The notes below the pieces were generated by a model, which saw only the letters and a list, made by a program, of their open reading frames with translations, was not told the origin of the DNA and made no database searches. DNA of 32,000 nt from assembly GCA_943789275.1 (NCBI GenBank), contig CALSTM010000002.1:150001-182000 (forward strand), given 5' to 3'. Of the stretch, positions 8,568 to 15,170 are shown piece after piece; position 1 is the first letter of the stretch, and every line of letters begins with the position of its first letter. The DNA is from Candidatus Poseidoniaceae archaeon. GTDB taxonomy: Archaea; Thermoplasmatota; Poseidoniia; Poseidoniales; Poseidoniaceae. A program made the translations under genes and the position numbers.

Positions 8568-8895
8568 GGTTTTGGGAAAGCATGTGACACTTCAAATGTG
8601 CTTTTGTAAATCAAATGTATAAGCTTGTGAGGAACAACCACAAGGGCTACTCCAAAAAATACCCTTGTGAAGATGCGGATCGTGTACAAGGGTGTTTAGC
8701 AAAACCCTCGTGAACAGAAGTAAATCACTTTGGTTGGCCCGCTTTGCTTGTTGTAGGAACAGCGTTGATTATCTTTGCAGCAACAAGATGGGCGAAGAAA
8801 TAGGGTCTATCCGAATACCCATTGAAACGGATTTACAATTTCAAAGGGCTTTCAATCTGTCCTTCGACAGGCTAATCTCAAAAACCGATCTACAC

Positions 8896-8964
8896 AAGGG
8901 GCCCCCTCGTAGCCGTATACGTGTACAACCGTACCGTTGAAGCGTATACGAACAAAGGGGCCCC
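8896..8964. repeat. structured repeat copy A (left island boundary)
   Basis: The 40-nt core 8896-8935 is AAGGGGCCCCCTCGTAGCCGTATACGTGTACAACCGTACC. The self-complementary blocks GGGGCCCC (8898-8905 / 8957-8964) and CGTATACG (8914-8921 / 8943-8950) can nest into a hairpin of about 67 nt. Confidence 0.8.
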
Positions 8965-8982
8965 TTATGTTTGTTCGAAAAT

Positions 8983-10044
8983 TCATGTATTCAATGACTT
9001 TAATGCATTGACGATTCTAGAAGATCTTAATCTCTTCAAATCCTTTTCATTTAAGACTTCAATTACAAATCTTCTGCTGTATAGGTTGCGTGTTGCCAAT
9101 TCATCCTTAATGTCAAAATACGTTATTTCTTGAAAACCCGGTAAGTTGCAAACAAAATCTTGATCTGAAAAAGATTGTTTTTCTTTAGTAGACTCCTCAA
9201 AGGCATAAAAATGGTTATCATCAAACCCAACAACCAACAATGGCTTTTCCTTGTTATCTGCAAGACAAACAATTTTCCCGACAAGTGATGGATTGTTAGG
9301 CTTGCCTAGTTCACCCTTGTTATCTTTTGAAAATTTGATATGCGGAAGTTCTCGAATTTTACTTATATGGTCTTCAGAAAGCCTGCCGATGACAGAATTA
9401 ACCTGTTCCGATGATATAGTGATTGGTTTTGATTCAAGACTTAAATGAGTAATGTCATTTGATGGGAGTTCAGATGAAAAAAAAGTCAAACTGTTTAGAG
9501 AACCGTCAAGTATATCACACTCTGGTAAGATCAGTAAATTACCATTTTTCAACTTCCCAACAATTACGCCTAAGTTTAAATCTTCCAATCCGATATGTAT
9601 ACTAGAATCATGTTCATTCCTAACCCAACATATCAAGTCCCATCGACTAGCATTGTTTTGCTCTGTTCTATCTGAAGAAAACCATGACCTCATTGCACAC
9701 CTTGCTAATAAGTCCTCCAACCTATCTGGATTGAGTCGCCCTATTCTAGATTTAATCTTATCAGATTTCACTCCCTTAACAATTTCCAGTTGGAAATATG
9801 TTTCGTGTTTGATTGTTCTTGCATTCTCATGCTCAATGCAATACGGAGAAACTTCAAATGAGGTGAACATCTCATTCCTAACCAACAAATGTTCCGGAGT
9901 TGGATATGATGTACCACTTAAAACAGCAATAATTTCGTCTTGGTCTTCTAGCACAATTGCGGGATGTAAAGTGCCTTTCTCATCATTCTCAAATTCAAAA
10001 TCTATCCAAACCAAGTCACCCAAATCAAAGTCATCTTCCCGCAT
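8983..10044 (-). CDS. hypothetical protein with three tandem PemK/MazF-like (SH3-fold toxin) repeats
   Basis: Repeat 1, GDLVWIDFE..GTLHPAIVLE..IIAVLSGTS...IGRLNPDRLEDLLAR, parallels the MazF pattern GDI.W.DF..G.E..+.RPA.VLS...V.PITS...IG.L....L..I. Repeats 2 and 3 keep the terminal motif (VIGRLSEDHISKIRE; VIEVLNEKDLKRLR). ATG 10044 is preferred over TTG 10059, and TTTATGAAAA lies just upstream. Confidence 0.7.
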   Translation of the reverse strand: MREDDFDLGDLVWIDFEFENDEKGTLHPAIVLEDQDEIIAVLSGTSYPTPEHLLVRNEMFTSFEVSPYCIEHENARTIKHETYFQLEIVKGVKSDKIKSRIGRLNPDRLEDLLARCAMRSWFSSDRTEQNNASRWDLICWVRNEHDSSIHIGLEDLNLGVIVGKLKNGNLLILPECDILDGSLNSLTFFSSELPSNDITHLSLESKPITISSEQVNSVIGRLSEDHISKIRELPHIKFSKDNKGELGKPNNPSLVGKIVCLADNKEKPLLVVGFDDNHFYAFEESTKEKQSFSDQDFVCNLPGFQEITYFDIKDELATRNLYSRRFVIEVLNEKDLKRLRSSRIVNALKSLNT

Positions 10045-10327
10045 ATAATCATCTTCCAATTTTCATAAACCAATTCCAGGACCAGTCTACGGGGGGAACC
10101 TCAACCACGTGATCTGTATGCTAGTATCAGCCTTCCACTGCCGATAGTACTTAAAGAAATTGATAAGCATATTATAACAATTCACAAGGGGTTCTCCATA
10201 ACACCCACTGATTCATCCTGCCCATACACATGACCTTGCTATGGGCCATATTGAACCCTAGCGTTGTATAGGACGGACATTAGTTGGAAATGAGAAAGAT
10301 TATGTTGACCTTAGCATTGAGAATAGT

Positions 10328-11188
10328 ATGGCCGCAACCATTTCTCTGGCTAATTTGGCAATTGGCGTTCTCACTGGTACAGAAGATGTGCCTGGAAATA
10401 TTCTAGAACACATCAATCAAGAGAGCGTCTCAAATCTCGATTCGGCAGGGATGGTGTGGTTACTCAAATGGGTCACGGCATTCCCGGCCTCAAACGATAT
10501 AGAACATATTTTTCAGCACCATTTTTCACAGTACCTTGAGCAAACAGAAGATCCACATGTTCTAGCTCACATGTTGTTATATGCAGATACGGTTCATGAA
10601 AATCCTTCATTAAAGACAACGATTGAAAGGAGAATAAAACACACTAATCTTCAGCACAATCAACTAATTCAATCTGCTCGGCGCTCTATTGTATTAGACC
10701 GGAGGTTTGAAGACCTTTGTGATTCAATGCCTCCACCCGATGATAATGAGGGGTATGTAGAAGATTTGAAATGGTATTCAAATAATGATGATCCATTATT
10801 CATTGGTCCATCCTATCACAGACTTATTTCTTCAGCAATATGCCAGGCACTGAGTAAAAAAATTGTTTCGGATGAACACATCGATGCACTGGAAAACATT
10901 TCATCAACTGGAGTTGAAAACGCTCTTTGTGTTGCGCAATTGCATTATTGTAACCACAATCAAACTAGATGTTTTGAAATCATTCAAGATGTAATTGATA
11001 CTGTGCATGAATTGCCTAACAATGATTCAAGTCAAAAATATGCCGAGGATTTTCGAAAAGAATGGAGGTTGGCTCATAATAATCATCTTTCAACTCTGTG
11101 GCATCCTCGAAATTTACCATGGATGAAATCAAGGCCCATTGGATACTGGAGATTGGTTTTGGATTTGGAGGTTGCGAATAATGAGTAA
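10328..11188 (+). CDS. hypothetical His-rich, predicted all-helical protein
   Basis: 286-aa ORF with an ATG start. GATTATGT-like A/T box about 21 nt upstream. Its stop overlaps the start of the downstream nuclease gene (ATGAGTAA, 8-nt overlap). Confidence 0.65.
   Translation: MAATISLANLAIGVLTGTEDVPGNILEHINQESVSNLDSAGMVWLLKWVTAFPASNDIEHIFQHHFSQYLEQTEDPHVLAHMLLYADTVHENPSLKTTIERRIKHTNLQHNQLIQSARRSIVLDRRFEDLCDSMPPPDDNEGYVEDLKWYSNNDDPLFIGPSYHRLISSAICQALSKKIVSDEHIDALENISSTGVENALCVAQLHYCNHNQTRCFEIIQDVIDTVHELPNNDSSQKYAEDFRKEWRLAHNNHLSTLWHPRNLPWMKSRPIGYWRLVLDLEVANNE
11167..11172 (+). promoter_or_regulatory. Shine-Dalgarno GGAGGT for the GIY-YIG gene
   Basis: GGAGGT lies 8 nt upstream of ATG 11181, inside the 3' end of the preceding ORF. 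This fits translational coupling. Confidence 0.6.
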
Positions 11189-12260
11189 AAAATCACGTAA
11201 GATCCCAACTTGCGGAATTTGTGGGGAATCAGGCCATAGATCGCCCACCTGTCAAAAAGTAAAATCAATCATGTTAAAATGGGAGAAATTTGCCAGTGTT
11301 GAAGATTTTATAAAAGATCAATATCTTCTCAGCCCTATTAAAAATACCTCGAAATCGACGAAGGTTGGAGGAAAACGTGAAACACTGAGGTTTGGCAAAT
11401 GTCAAGGTTGGTACTCATTAGAAAGTGATTCTGGAGTGCATTACATTGGATTGGTTGGAGAAGTCAGCTCCAAAACGAAAATTCAGTCTAAAAACTCATT
11501 TTATGAGCGTTGGTTGGGCCACTACACGGATAGTAGAAGAAGCTGGCATGATAAGGGCGGATTTGGTGCAGGAAACAATGGAACTTGGCCGAGTGACCAT
11601 CTGAAAGATGGGAAATTACTTTCAAAAAATAAATACCAATTGTTGATTAGTAAGGTGAATAATATGGCAATTGATTACGATGAAACAAGGAAGAGAACTC
11701 CAAAGCCGAAATTTATTGTCCCAGGAGTTGAACAAGCTGCGCTGATAACAAATGTAGAACAATACATGATACATCGTTATGCAAATAATCCCGCCACTCG
11801 TAAGTTTAACAAAGATACTCCAAGCGTACTAGTTGATTCAGAGGGCACTAAAGTGAGTTTCAAACCAGATAAAGAGATTTTATTCAACACCAGTAACACC
11901 AAAACCATAAATAAAACACCACCTAATATCAGAGTCAGTATTTCGCCGAAAACTGGAGTAAACATGTCCCACTTGTGCGAATTAAACGATGAAGAGAGGA
12001 CAATGAACGATTACAAAAAGACATACAAAAAAGATCTAAAAAAGCCAGCAGCGGCTGAGAAAGCACCAGCAAAGAAATCACCAGCAAAGAAATCACCAGC
12101 AAAGAAAGCAATCAGTTCGAAAAAGAAAAATTTAACCAAAGTCCAAACTTTGCGAAAAGCGAGAGAAAAGAAACAGGATACTTGGTCTTGGAACGGAAAA
12201 AGAATGGGGAAAGTGGCTAATTATGTCATCAAGAAGGGGAAAAGAGTTGCAAAAAAATAA
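11181..12260 (+). CDS. CCHC zinc-knuckle / GIY-YIG nuclease (I-TevI-like) / AKKSP-repeat basic-tail protein
   Basis: CGICGESGHRSPTC fits CX2CX4HX4C. GWY-x9-YIG is followed by FYERWLGHY (compare I-TevI FEKRWKRHF), with later acidic residues (VEQAALITNVEQ). The C-terminus is KKPAAAEKAPAKKSPAKKSPAKK. I use ATG 11181 with its SD rather than the ORF-track start at 11139. Confidence 0.75.
   Translation: MSKKSRKIPTCGICGESGHRSPTCQKVKSIMLKWEKFASVEDFIKDQYLLSPIKNTSKSTKVGGKRETLRFGKCQGWYSLESDSGVHYIGLVGEVSSKTKIQSKNSFYERWLGHYTDSRRSWHDKGGFGAGNNGTWPSDHLKDGKLLSKNKYQLLISKVNNMAIDYDETRKRTPKPKFIVPGVEQAALITNVEQYMIHRYANNPATRKFNKDTPSVLVDSEGTKVSFKPDKEILFNTSNTKTINKTPPNIRVSISPKTGVNMSHLCELNDEERTMNDYKKTYKKDLKKPAAAEKAPAKKSPAKKSPAKKAISSKKKNLTKVQTLRKAREKKQDTWSWNGKRMGKVANYVIKKGKRVAKK
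12064..12108 (+). repeat. 3 x 15-bp tandem repeat CACCAGCAAAGAAAT inside the nuclease gene
   Basis: Copies lie at 12064-12078, 12079-12093 and 12094-12108, and the last base of the third copy differs. They encode the (S)PAKK repeats. Confidence 0.9.
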
Positions 12261-12265
12261 TTGAA

Positions 12266-12294
12266 TCTGTCTTTTTTAAAAAGCAAATCACAGA
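12266..12294 (+). terminator. putative terminator: T6 run within hairpin/palindrome
   Basis: TCTGT (12266-12270) pairs with ACAGA (12290-12294) around the palindrome CTTTTTTAAAAAG (12271-12283). It starts 6 nt after the stop at 12260. An oligo-T tract is the usual archaeal termination signal. Confidence 0.4.
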
Positions 12295-12366
12295 CTAAAA
12301 GTTCCTTCTTCAACAGTCCCTGTGTATGTATACGAAGCCATGAGTAGACTCAAACATGAGTGTTAA

Positions 12367-12437
12367 AAGGGGCCCCCTCGAAGCCGTATACGTGTACAAC
12401 GGTACCCATGTGAATGCAGACGTGCATAAGGGGGCCC
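12367..12437. repeat. structured repeat copy B (right island boundary)
   Basis: The core 12367-12406 is AAGGGGCCCCCTCGAAGCCGTATACGTGTACAACGGTACC. Next comes an ATGCA-GACG-TGCAT hairpin, then AAGGGGGCCC (12428-12437), which can pair with the first GGGGCCCC block. Confidence 0.8.
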
Positions 12438-12479
12438 GTTGTGTATAATGTTTGAATTTGACAATCTGGGATTGATATC

Positions 12480-13595
12480 TCACTCTACTTCTTGAAGTCG
12501 TGTGCCGTCTCCAAGAAGGCCAACACTGCAATCGTACCCGGGATTAATGCAATTGTTGATGATGAGGTCCATGATGTCCGGGTCCCATCCATTCATCCAG
12601 TCGCCATGCAAAGATGAGCCGCTCGGGTGTGATGCATTCATGTCTGATGAGAGATACCATGTGTCCGATGGACCGGTCTCTTCCGTGACCCAGAATGCAA
12701 ATTTGTACGATATTTCAGGAATGGCTACGGGGTGTGAGTCCGGGCAATATCCCGTGCCTGTGTTTGGTGCCTCAGCGAGGATAGGATAGGACATGTGGCT
12801 GCGCTGATTTTCTGAGGTGAGATTTTGTCCATCCCAACATTGTGGAAAAACGACCCTAAACTCGAGTAATTCACCTGGTTGACATTCAGGCAAATACGGC
12901 ACATGATCCATTGGATCTCCCTCATCGAATTGAGGAGAAGGAGCCTCCCAATGTTCGCAACGATACTTCGCACTTATCACGTCTTGCGGTTCTGGTCTGT
13001 CATGACCTGCAATCATCACCAAGCCTTCAGGTGGGGCTTGAATAAGCTCCGCAGGAATATGGTAGCCGCTTTTGTAGTAAAAGAGAGGTTCAACATATTC
13101 CAGCCTGGTTCCATCTGCTGAAAACAATGATGGCACCCAATAAGCGGCTTGATTCAAAGCCACTCCTTCGCAAGTCGTTTGATCTGTTGCGTTCCTCAGT
13201 TGTTCCGTCGTGGTGTTTGCATCCGTTTCAGGGAATCCAAAGAAAACATGCTCGTGAGCAGCCCCTGTTTGTCCGGGATATACGAGAGGGTCGTCATTGT
13301 TGACATGGGATTCTGTGCAGTGTGTACGAAAATTCCCGGTTCCGTCTTCGTTGATGTAGATGTTTTCATCAGAATAAATTCTGCCTGGCTGTAGGTCGAT
13401 CTCAGGAGGGGGGTTCGTCTTTACGAGATCGCTTTCATCCTCACCATCTTCGTCTCCCTCAAACCAATCGAAGGCATCAATGGCGATGATGCTTGCAACA
13501 ATCATTAGAAGAATAGAAAAGGACGTGATTTTGGTGCCGAAGAACTTCGCTGACGTAGCAACATCGACTTCTCGGAAATTCTCAGTTTCCTCCAC
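12480..13595 (-). CDS. DUF1996 domain protein with N-terminal membrane anchor
   Basis: The TM segment is ITSFSILLMIVASIIAIDAF. The motif FRTHCTESHVNNDDPLVYPGQTGAAHEHVFFG matches the DUF1996 signature (sH...DDPIv.PG....H.H.FFG). The start is GTG, with TTATCAAT (rc of 13617-13624) exactly 21 nt upstream. Confidence 0.8.
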   Translation of the reverse strand: MEETENFREVDVATSAKFFGTKITSFSILLMIVASIIAIDAFDWFEGDEDGEDESDLVKTNPPPEIDLQPGRIYSDENIYINEDGTGNFRTHCTESHVNNDDPLVYPGQTGAAHEHVFFGFPETDANTTTEQLRNATDQTTCEGVALNQAAYWVPSLFSADGTRLEYVEPLFYYKSGYHIPAELIQAPPEGLVMIAGHDRPEPQDVISAKYRCEHWEAPSPQFDEGDPMDHVPYLPECQPGELLEFRVVFPQCWDGQNLTSENQRSHMSYPILAEAPNTGTGYCPDSHPVAIPEISYKFAFWVTEETGPSDTWYLSSDMNASHPSGSSLHGDWMNGWDPDIMDLIINNCINPGYDCSVGLLGDGTRLQEVE

Positions 13596-13616
13596 GAGGC
13601 TCCCTCGTGTTGGTTA

Positions 13617-13624
13617 TTGATAAG
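13617..13624 (-). promoter_or_regulatory. TATA-like box (TTATCAAT on minus strand) for the DUF1996 gene
   Basis: 21-nt spacing to GTG 13595. Confidence 0.4.
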
Positions 13625-13790
13625 GTATCGTACATCTTGATTTCAGAATCAAGGAAATCAAAATTCCAACATAAGTTTCATGAAAATTGTTCATTAGCAT
13701 AATCCCGATATTGAGGATTTTCATTTGCCAATCTCCAAGGGCCTCTTCACTGACCCACGGAGATAAGATTCGAATTCACAAGGGTTCGCA

Positions 13791-13828
13791 GTGGGTCGTG
13801 TTCGACGCTAGCGTCTAAAATGACCCAC
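13791..13828. repeat. 38-bp imperfect palindrome GTGGGTC-N6-GACGCTAGCGTC-N6-GACCCAC
   Basis: The outer 7-mers and the central 12-mer are perfectly self-complementary; the 6-nt spacers are not. A third GACCCAC lies at 13752-13758. Confidence 0.85.
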
Positions 13829-13961: not shown

Positions 13962-15116
13962 ATGCAGAAAATACCACTGATAATTTTTTTAATGATGATG
14001 GCCGTATCCCTTTCCGGATGCATTGGAGGAGAAGTTGAAACCAGCGATGGAGAAGAACTCATCTTGGAAGATACCGATGATTGGCCAACCTACCTTGTTC
14101 CAACTTCCGGAGATCTACCAGCCTGTGACGCGACCACACTCGGAAGGTTGTATTATGTTGAAGCAGAAACGAGTTTTCAAGCTTGCAGTTCATCTGGTTG
14201 GAACGTTATTGACTTTTCAACTCCCCTGAATCAAGCACCAAGAATTTCAGCAACCATCATGGCAGATGATGACGGACATAGCTTCTCGGAGGATTTGTCT
14301 GCAGAATGGATGTATGTTGGACAGTTGACTTGGTCTGCAGTTGACCCCGAAGGGGAAGCCGTTACGGTCGGAGTGGACCATGACCGAGACGGTACTGCCG
14401 ACATCATGCTTCCAAGAGCAGAGGGCTCAATAGTTGATGTTGCAGGCGGAATGCTGACGGTGCCATGGAACGGAAGTATTGTCAGCGAGAGGCTGGAGTT
14501 CCCCAACAGTTGTTACTTGGCGTTTACAAGAATGATCGATGTGATTTCAACAGATGCTTCAGGCATCTCAGCGTCGTACACCGTCCAAACCGGTGCCATA
14601 TCCTCAAATAATATATTCAGCAACATGTATTCTGCTGAAGATGTTGATTGGGTTGAAATGCTCTTTGAAAATTATGTTTCCCAAGACGATCTTGATTGGC
14701 TTGATGGAACTGCTACAGACTCGAATTGCGAGGCGGACTCTAACTCAGGACCCCAACTTAGCGTTTATGATTTCACAGCACAGGACTCCGGCGTTGCAGT
14801 GAGTTCAGCATCTGATGATGTTCTCTTTAGCATAACCTATCAACAAGGAAGCAGTTTAGGTTCAGAATTTTTGAAAATTACGCTTTCTGTAAATGGAAAT
14901 CAACCCGTGAACTGTTATGCATCTACGGGAATGGGGGATTGCAGCTATGAACTTTCAACTACAGGTGAAACGTTTTCCGTTGGGGCTTCAATCGTTGTAT
15001 CCGAGGATGGTACTGATCTATGCAATGAAGGTCATGACCCTTGCGAAATTTCCATTACGTTGGTAAACTCCGACACCAATGAAGTATTGGATAACATCAC
15101 CGTTGAAGTTGAATGA
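13962..15116 (+). CDS. secreted acidic lipoprotein / surface protein, function unknown
   Basis: The signal peptide carries a lipobox (MQKIPLIIFLMMMAVSLSGC). The mature part is very Asp/Glu/Ser/Thr-rich with paired Cys residues. Confidence 0.75.
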   Translation: MQKIPLIIFLMMMAVSLSGCIGGEVETSDGEELILEDTDDWPTYLVPTSGDLPACDATTLGRLYYVEAETSFQACSSSGWNVIDFSTPLNQAPRISATIMADDDGHSFSEDLSAEWMYVGQLTWSAVDPEGEAVTVGVDHDRDGTADIMLPRAEGSIVDVAGGMLTVPWNGSIVSERLEFPNSCYLAFTRMIDVISTDASGISASYTVQTGAISSNNIFSNMYSAEDVDWVEMLFENYVSQDDLDWLDGTATDSNCEADSNSGPQLSVYDFTAQDSGVAVSSASDDVLFSITYQQGSSLGSEFLKITLSVNGNQPVNCYASTGMGDCSYELSTTGETFSVGASIVVSEDGTDLCNEGHDPCEISITLVNSDTNEVLDNITVEVE

Positions 15117-15138: not shown

Positions 15139-15170
15139 AATGGGTTTTGCGTGGGTCATTTTAGACGCTA
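15139..15170. repeat. right arm of 32-nt inverted repeat
   Basis: AATGGGTTTTGCGTGGGTCATTTTAGACGCTA, the reverse complement of the left arm with one mismatch. Confidence 0.9.

Follow-up and report, generated by a model that had tools for sequence, protein, structure and literature searches.

What would a protein that joins a retroviral-type zinc knuckle, a nuclease-like hairpin and a lysine-rich tail be doing in an archaeal chromosome? The question is raised by the open reading frame (ORF) at positions 11181-12260, on the forward strand of a 32,000-nucleotide stretch of Candidatus Poseidoniaceae archaeon DNA, referred to below as the window. The answer proposed here is that this ORF encodes the second product of a conserved two-gene operon, carried as cargo by a 3.48-kb cassette, and that the core of the protein is probably a very divergent domain of the GIY-YIG type, a membership that the usual criteria do not establish. 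The first-pass annotation of this DNA had supposed an archaeal host, and this is confirmed: aRF1 is 98% identical to that of Poseidoniaceae metagenome-assembled genomes, which identifies the host as Poseidoniaceae (Marine Group IIa). Archaea of Marine Group II are abundant uncultured heterotrophs of the ocean, and their defence and mobile-element biology is almost unknown. We found no paper on this protein, or on such cassettes in Poseidoniales.

The frame runs uninterrupted over 359 codons (359 amino acids, aa, in translation). It starts at ATG 11181, homologs sharing an MSKK N-terminus, and this start overlaps the stop of ORF 10328-11188, which lies upstream (ATGAGTAA). From the N- to the C-terminus, the architecture consists of a CCHC zinc knuckle, a core with a GWY-YIG hairpin, a linker, a lysine-rich tail and a basic C-terminal module. 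The three parts initially described (the knuckle, the GWY-x9-YIG motif with its FYERW, and the lysine-rich tail) are all really present in this one ORF, and contigs from 45 blocks of the assembly collection encode the exact 359-aa protein.

The conserved core spans approximately residues 66-245 (11376-11915), as delimited by the columns invariant in 16 sequences, by hhalign alignments to I-TevI-type profiles and by the order of secondary structures in an AlphaFold2 (AF2) model. It carries the hairpin that extends from G76 to G90 (11406-11450), which reads G76-W-Y78-x9-Y88-I-G90 in the window protein and follows the signature QGWY-x-L-x7-YIGLVG in the family. The pattern G.Y-x9-11-YIG arose in only 3 of 20,000 shuffles of the protein. 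Next comes F107-Y-E-R110-W-L-G-H-Y, in which R110 (FYERW, 11499-11513) aligns with the catalytic R27 of I-TevI, and further on an invariant glutamate, E193 (codon 11757-11759, within NVEQYMIH), aligns with the catalytic E75. Insertions are found in the core at residues 91-102 and ~117-150.

Neither Pfam, PHROG nor PADLOC assigns the protein to a family, and NCBIfam gives no meaningful assignment. Searches covering 5.8 billion clustered proteins gave six relatives in a first pass, and a core profile found more; the family is very rare, with ~25 clusters in that collection, and the 359-aa protein was not found in the GTDB species genomes. A validated degenerate DNA pattern for the QGWY-x-L-x7-YIGLVG signature, used to scan metagenome loci and IMG/VR, recovered ten metagenome loci and none in IMG/VR, where the 359-aa protein itself and a subfamily-2 member also lack relatives. 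The family members that can be placed sit in Poseidoniales (Marine Group II)-type contexts; one subfamily-2 locus, for instance, carries a PhoX that is 75% identical to the PhoX of a contig sharing the DUF1996 cassette of the window (see below). The “eukaryote/virus-flavoured” character first attributed to the protein therefore does not hold.

The family splits into three subfamilies. In subfamily 1, the knuckle is followed by the core (the window protein, P0001-4, P0007-9 and P0012), while in subfamily 2 the N-terminal module is beta-rich or basic, a K/S linker leads to the core, and the C-terminal domain is a different one (P0011 and P0013-19). Subfamily 3 (P0005 and P0006) is distant and carries a literal GIY..YIG motif; P0005 matches the family core in hhalign (E=5.8e-5 over 150 columns), and also gives E=0.013 with UvrC, the P0005 glutamate falling on the catalytic glutamate of UvrC. 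Across the 16 aligned members, which belong to two subfamilies, Q75, G76, W77, Y78, L80, Y88, I89, G90, L91, V92, G93 and Q102 are invariant in 16/16, as are R110, W111, H123, D124, P137, K145, L154, Q185, I189, E193 and I197. The terminal modules are the variable parts: the knuckle is replaced by basic or beta-rich N-terminal modules, and C-termini are swapped among members. Nucleases that take on DNA-binding modules typically show such exchange.

Does the core then belong among the GIY-YIG nucleases? The first indication comes from profile-profile comparison. Aligned with I-TevI alone, the family core (15 sequences) scores 19.9 in hhalign (E=0.012, probability 3.5%) and the extended family (27 sequences) scores 22.4 (E=0.004, probability 8.4%). 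The score of the extended family climbs further, to 26.5 (E=8.6e-4, probability 24%), when I-TevI is joined by seven phage relatives, and to 28.3 (E=5e-4, probability 32%) when three GIY-YIG families are combined in a 22-sequence profile, so that it rises at each enrichment of the profiles. As controls, 4 of 400 shuffled I-TevI sequences reach 19.9, and the 600 column-shuffled phage profiles all stay below 26.5 (maximum 25.9, 99.5th percentile 18.7). As a yardstick, bona fide GIY-YIG families aligned with one another score 17.6-31.6 when the profiles are small, two of these families giving no more than 17.6-21.9, and they reach 32.7-38.4 when aligned with the phage profile. With E-values of 5e-4 to 0.012 and probabilities of 4-32%, these sequence comparisons are suggestive only of a GIY-YIG link.

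The second indication is the register. In the runs against I-TevI-type profiles, Y78 falls on Y6, Y88 on Y17, R110 on R27 and E193 on E75, so the equivalents of the catalytic arginine and glutamate of I-TevI that had been called for do exist, are invariant and stand in the hhalign register. The I-TevI sequence used is that of PDB 1ln0/1mk0 except for their R27A and E75A mutations, which confirms R27 and E75 as the mutated residues. The AF2 model gives strands at 77-82 and 85-91, a helix at 107-116, a low-confidence insertion, a strand at 153-158 and a helix at 183-202, and this predicted order, beta-beta-alpha..beta..alpha, fits the GIY-YIG fold. In the model, the invariant G76-W-Y78 and Y88-I-G90 lie on or beside the two hairpin strands, and the family has both an invariant arginine on helix 1 (R110) and an invariant glutamate on the last helix of the core (E193). 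Structure prediction from five close homologs was unusable (pLDDT, the predicted local distance difference test, of 31). A C-type lectin fold (CEL-I, ‘WIGL’-like) was also considered and set aside: it appeared at E=1.4 in one PDB profile search, was lost with a broader profile, and the lectin cysteines are absent.

The core is flanked by basic or metal-binding modules. The knuckle, CGICGESGHRSPTC (residues 11-24, 11211-11252), matches the pattern CX2CX4HX4C and includes the usual CxxCGxxGH, with a glycine after the second cysteine and another before the histidine. No other instance of the pattern turns up when the window is translated in all six frames, and shuffling the protein 20,000 times never produced it (expected 2e-5). 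All four ligands (C, C, H and C) are retained in P0007, P0008 and P0012, which are only 38-46% identical, and in P0002-4. The retroviral-type knuckle initially recognized is therefore exact in its pattern and conserved in its ligands, while Pfam zf-CCHC (PF00098) stays below threshold, with 11.5-12.8 bits in five members for a cut-off of 20.8; this model has only 18 positions, and scores are low for a lone knuckle that has no aromatic residues.

The lysine-rich (A/S)PAKK repeat tail (12039-12110), KKPAAAEKAPAKKSPAKKSPAKK, corresponds to residues 287-309. A 15-nucleotide tandem repeat at 12058-12110 (3.5 copies, 94% matches) encodes its (S/A)PAKK units, whose number differs between alleles, the window having ~3 and L101 the most; these differences suggest slippage-driven length variation of a basic linker. 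The resemblance to histone H1 and SPKK tails that had been proposed is half right: a lysine-rich repeat is present, but its unit is (S/A)-P-A-K-K and not the strict S/T-P-K/R-K/R, homologs carrying APAKK. A low-complexity match of the tail with the NCBIfam Rv3852_fam (E=1.3e-4) lies far below the family cut-off. Short K/A/P/S repeats, here (S/A)PAKK x 3, are shared with HupB/Hlp, Rv3852 and histone H1 or SPKK tails, from which the window protein differs by its SPAKK motif and by a 15-nucleotide repeat of variable copy number. The likeness is one of composition, and does not speak for a common origin.

The basic C-terminal module, KKNLTKVQTLR..TWSWNGKRMGKVANYVIKKGKRVAKK (12111-12257), is shared with P0005 and P0006 (L015:1238-2413). 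Over the last ~50 residues (12108-12257; KKNLTKVQTLR..TWSWNG.RMGKVA.YVI.KGKRVAK) they are ~85% identical to the window protein despite only distantly related cores, which indicates a recent recombinational exchange of the module. A relation between this ‘TWSWNG’ module and the ‘KKWQW.KW’ domain at the N-terminus of subfamily 2 was dropped (hhalign E=0.29), and a Sul7d/Cren7-like nature of the two is no more than a tentative suggestion.

The protein does not travel alone. Its partner gene (10328-11188, forward strand, 286 aa), whose stop overlaps the start of the 359-aa ORF, encodes a helical, weakly TPR (tetratricopeptide repeat)-like protein. In all family loci with upstream sequence, an overlapping or abutting gene precedes the family gene, and for subfamilies 1 and 2 it encodes a homolog of the window partner, 283-393 aa long, with the conserved C-terminal motif E-W/F..LPW..R..YW..V. 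The gene upstream of the subfamily-3 member P0005 shows no detectable similarity to the partner family. No Pfam domain is found in the partner; its profile matches the TPR repeats of TTC21B at E=5.7e-4. Its reading as a dimeric dUTPase/MazG-like protein was rejected, the Pfam dUTPase_2 match (E=0.032 in 2 of 9 members) being too weak. In other genomes, the pair has for neighbours McrBC/AAA_5, RmuC, or an AAA_15/AAA_21 ATPase with a downstream gene. In the window, a divergently transcribed MazF/PemK-like gene of 353-358 aa (8983-10059, reverse strand) lies in the same cassette, and its product matches Pfam PemK_toxin at 23.8 bits (cut-off 23.1) and a MazF-like PHROG at E=6.5e-6.

How might such a pair work? 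The knuckle, the (A/S)PAKK repeat and the basic C-terminal module would provide non-specific binding to nucleic acids. The ~180-residue core would then cleave nucleic acid by the one-metal GIY-YIG mechanism, with Tyr78 and Tyr88 of the hairpin, Arg110 of helix 1 and the metal-binding Glu193 of the last helix as putative catalytic residues. The partner may restrain the nuclease or sense a trigger. The pair would then serve defence or addiction, as a toxin-immunity-like module, and would not be the enzyme that moves the cassette. As a whole, this chain, from a GIY-YIG-type nuclease effector with its partner to a defence or addiction pair carried as cassette cargo, is the account towards which we lean. 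It resembles the two-gene defence or toxin-immunity modules of defence islands, in which a nuclease effector is accompanied by a helical-repeat partner: in both cases the genes form a tight, strain-variable pair on a mobile element, here in the company of McrBC, RmuC, the AAA_15 ATPase and the MazF-like gene. It differs from them in that no PADLOC model was matched and that the window partner lacks an NTPase domain.

The cassette itself is well delimited. The low-GC segment at 8927-12410 (3.48 kb) contains three genes, the MazF-like gene and the pair, and was recognized by its GC content, its presence in a second context and its empty site. GC falls from ~0.47 to 0.36-0.40 across 9-12 kb of the window. 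A 40-nucleotide direct repeat lies at 8896-8935 and 12367-12406, and the segment recurs at 99.8% identity in L003 and L006, in another context where a PLD-like gene and a serine recombinase adjoin it; the flanks of the two contexts are wholly different. The early view that the gene lies on an inserted island is borne out by this flanking repeat and this second context. The empty site is seen at L107:10170-10260 (minus-strand view) and at 12 similar places, where DLH adjoins DUF1996.

The left junction site (8891-8970) is an imperfect dyad, GGGGCCCCC..CAACCGTACCGTTG..GGGGCCCC, which includes the repeat at 8896-8935; the right one (12362-12445), GGGGCCCCC..CAACGGTAC|CCATG..GGGGGCCC, includes the repeat at 12367-12406. 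The core sequence of the dyad at the junction sites is CAACGGTACCGTTG, and the outer motifs are ACAAGGG..GGGCC or GGGGCCCC. The right site is also the insertion point of a second cassette in another strain (L002) and the start of the DUF1996 cassette. In L002, this second cassette, 3.4 kb long, interrupts the right-hand site precisely at its GGTACC core, and carries a 262-aa serine recombinase as well as a canonical GIY-YIG+CCHC protein. Such sites were located in the window at 8891-8970, 12362-12445, 13791-13828 and 15151-15170, and elsewhere at L002:14618-14700, L003:7700-7790 and around 8786 and 10196 in L106-L115. The junctions all fall at the centre of imperfect dyads with cores such as GGTACC, GCTACC and GCTAGC, hybrid sites being formed in different strains.

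In the window, three units of an array are delimited: 8927-12410, 12400-13810, and 13810 to ~15150. The second is a single-gene, nuclease-free DUF1996 cassette (gene at 12480-13595, minus strand), which is found again in 8 or more unrelated contexts on long metagenome contigs (L106, L108-L113 and L115), with >=98.8% identity; the identical DUF1996 protein is present in 188 blocks of the assembly collection. Small serine recombinases with a Resolvase domain, of 262 and 265 aa and 60% identical to each other, are encoded in the cassettes that adjoin the 3.48-kb cassette in its two contexts (L002:12975-13763 and L003:6164-6961; also in L005, L006 and L098). They are candidate enzymes for cassette shuffling. 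The array is reminiscent of integron cassettes and pdif modules; it differs by a central crossover and by the absence of a nearby integron integrase.

Several results weigh against a nuclease-based defence module. The significant GIY-YIG profile match on which the first-pass annotation had made its assignment depend is lacking: no match to PF01541 was obtained for any of the 16 family members, with a limit as loose as E<=10, the PDB sequences yielded nothing when searched by profile, and in hhalign the family core (15 sequences) stays at background level against UvrC (3 sequences; score 11.0, E=0.44, probability 0.1%) and against the UPF0213-type PF01541 alignment A6 (13.3, E=0.17, probability 0.3%), that is, for two of the three reference families. 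The best probability obtained, 32%, is below the usual acceptance level, and the hypothesis was prompted by seeing the motif, its p-values being uncorrected for a database-wide search. R110 comes 20 residues after the YIG (G90), compared with 8 in I-TevI, and no conserved asparagine occupies the canonical position (N90 of I-TevI) across the aligned members: N210 (KFN, aligned in the 22-sequence run) is not conserved, N202 (YAN) is restricted to subfamily 1, and the nearly invariant N236 sits 43 residues past E193. The AF2 model is weak (pLDDT 56; predicted template modelling score, pTM, 0.53), and with this low-confidence model Foldseek finds no significant fold match in the PDB and BFVD. The ratio of nonsynonymous to synonymous substitutions (dN/dS) among close alleles is high, at 0.64 overall and 0.4-0.6 in the core. 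As for defence, PADLOC-DB 2.0 has no match for the 359-aa ORF and only a non-significant one for the partner (E=0.3), other cassettes of the array carry non-defence genes (DUF1996, glycosyltransferases), and the gene neighbourhood is the one thing from which a defence role may be read. 

Much of this would also be expected if the core were an undescribed fold outside the GIY-YIG group, an enzyme or a binding domain whose hairpin and ‘F..RW’ helix came to resemble I-TevI by convergence, in a protein still serving as nucleic-acid-binding cargo with its partner. This view has in its favour the silence of Pfam, PDB sequence searches and Foldseek, the odd spacing of the arginine, the missing asparagine, and extra invariants that have no GIY-YIG counterpart (Q75, W77, Q102, W111, H123-D124, P137 and Q185). 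It deserves attention but seems unlikely to us, as it leaves unexplained a score that rises from 19.9 to 28.3 with profile enrichment and that no shuffled profile among 600 attains, four invariant catalytic positions in register, the bridge that P0005 forms to UvrC, and the agreement in predicted secondary-structure order. Might the protein instead be non-catalytic, a nucleoid- or chromatin-associated protein or a regulator, its basic modules binding DNA or RNA and its core being structural or devoted to protein interactions? Lysine makes up 17% of the protein and 32% of its final 77 residues (283-359), the tail recalls the low-complexity tails of bacterial histone-like proteins through the Rv3852_fam match, and no enzymatic family was matched. 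But the most conserved residues are polar and aromatic ones of the core in a catalytic-like pattern (Y, Y, R, H, D, E), whereas conservation is lowest in the basic modules, which are exchanged between subfamilies, with a dN/dS of ~1.3 at the N-terminus (residues 1-65), and the family is rare, strain-variable and cassette-borne, unlike what is expected of a chromatin protein; we regard this role as improbable. Equally hard to credit is the idea that the protein moves its own island, as a homing-type or site-specific nuclease cutting the empty site or the 40-nucleotide repeat. GIY-YIG homing endonucleases with added DNA-binding modules are indeed known selfish genes, as the annotations of I-TevI recall, the 3.48-kb cassette has no recombinase of its own, and the direct repeat flanks it. 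Against this stand the DUF1996 cassette, which has the same type of junction and no nuclease, and the junctions at dyad centres (GGTACC/GCTAGC cores) with hybrid sites, which are the signature of a site-specific recombinase and not of double-strand-break repair, with the two related serine recombinases in neighbouring cassettes. Since the flanks differ entirely between the two contexts, homing by flanking homology is excluded, and since nuclease-free cassettes are equally mobile, the 359-aa ORF is cargo and not the mobility enzyme. A strictly conserved partner is not expected for a free-standing homing endonuclease either, and other family members are paired with a partner but not visibly associated with dyad or repeat sites. 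Of the two functions originally offered, “mobility or effector nuclease”, mobility is thus unlikely and effector is the best reading.

With the nuclease effector and its partner retained as that reading, which known systems come closest? By mechanism, it is the I-TevI-type GIY-YIG endonucleases (PDB 1LN0/1MK0; PF01541), and by architecture, the small canonical GIY-YIG+CCHC proteins. With the former, the window family shares the G-x-Y...Y-I-G hairpin with 9-10 residues between its motifs, an ‘F-E/Y-x-R-W’ on the next helix and a glutamate on a later helix, all in the hhalign register, along with a modular design in which a small catalytic core is joined by linkers to nucleic-acid-binding modules. 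It departs from them by a 12-residue insertion between YIG and the arginine helix, a ~35-residue insertion (GGFG..NGTWP) before strand 3, the lack of a significant Pfam/HMMER match and of a conserved asparagine at the N90 position, and invariants of its own (Q75, W77, LVG and H123-D124). It also has an obligatory upstream partner, and is neither in an intron or intein nor free-standing in phage. In Penelope-like elements, the endonuclease combines a GIY-YIG nuclease with a CCHC-type Cys/His zinc module. Here, in contrast, there is no reverse transcriptase, the host is an archaeon, and the retroviral-type knuckle forms a separate N-terminal unit outside the nuclease domain. 

The small canonical GIY-YIG+CCHC proteins (PF01541 + PF00098/PF14787) are represented in the same chromosomal hotspot. 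At L002:13804-14322, in the cassette next to the 3.48-kb cassette of another strain, a 172-aa protein combines a canonical GIY-YIG domain (PF01541; Pfam match, and PDB 1zg2 at E=6e-5) with a CX2CX4HX4C knuckle. It has 43 relatives in IMG/VR (L123, L125 and 41 other loci; 30-42% identity), of which more than 20 lie on contigs of giant viruses (GVMAG); both of the relatives that were translated have the knuckle. These relatives suggest possible gene flow between Marine Group II cassettes and giant viruses, and the initial “virus-flavoured” intuition fits this other protein. The order of the modules is reversed, the knuckle being C-terminal there and N-terminal in the window protein, and the domain is not detectably similar to the window core (hhalign 13.3, not significant). 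These small proteins have neither partner gene nor lysine-rich tail, and while they have many giant-virus relatives, the window family has none.

The family, not described before, is probably a divergent branch of GIY-YIG and shows a new arrangement of two genes. If its core is a GIY-YIG nuclease, the superfamily extends well past detection by current profile libraries, and the architecture (N-terminal retroviral-type knuckle, core, repeat tail and obligatory helical partner) is one absent from the Pfam catalogue. A broader proposal can be put forward only tentatively: the pair would be an undescribed two-gene archaeal defence or addiction system, with a deeply divergent new GIY-YIG branch as its effector, that circulates in Marine Group II on an undescribed cassette system without integron integrase. 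In such a system, single- and multi-gene cassettes bounded by ~80-nucleotide dyad sites would be shuffled among many chromosomal positions, probably by cassette-borne small serine recombinases. The two-gene nuclease module is a concrete candidate to be tried in heterologous hosts for Marine Group II biology. The cassette array may be the more important lead: its genes recur unchanged in many contexts, its dyad junctions are precise and an empty site can be identified, which suggests a route for the shuffling of flexible genes within natural Marine Group II populations.

Some further observations concern the cassettes and their genes. No RNA family was found by Rfam in the whole window, and IMG/VR holds no match for the junction site or for the serine recombinase. 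At the L107 empty site, window position 8939 is joined to 12404 with a ~17-20 nucleotide filler, GTGGTCGCCCGCATATACAC, that is missing from the occupied site, so the insertion was not a simple one-crossover event at one point. The MazF/PemK-like protein of the window is ~3x the size of MazF, its PemK domain covering residues 13-119 and the remainder looking like beta-rich repeats; in L005, the MazF-like gene is broken into fragments of 85 and 145 aa and the downstream pair is intact. The third unit of the array (13810 to ~15150) contains a 384-aa ORF (13962-15116, forward strand) with no Pfam match, and this cassette-like unit is absent from L108 and L114. Finally, another selfish-nuclease-like gene of the array may be represented in the second cassette of L002 by an ORF fragment (L002:11478-11648, minus strand; …MELDVFLPERNLALEYQGRQHY…) that looks like an endonuclease of the Vsr/DUF559 type.

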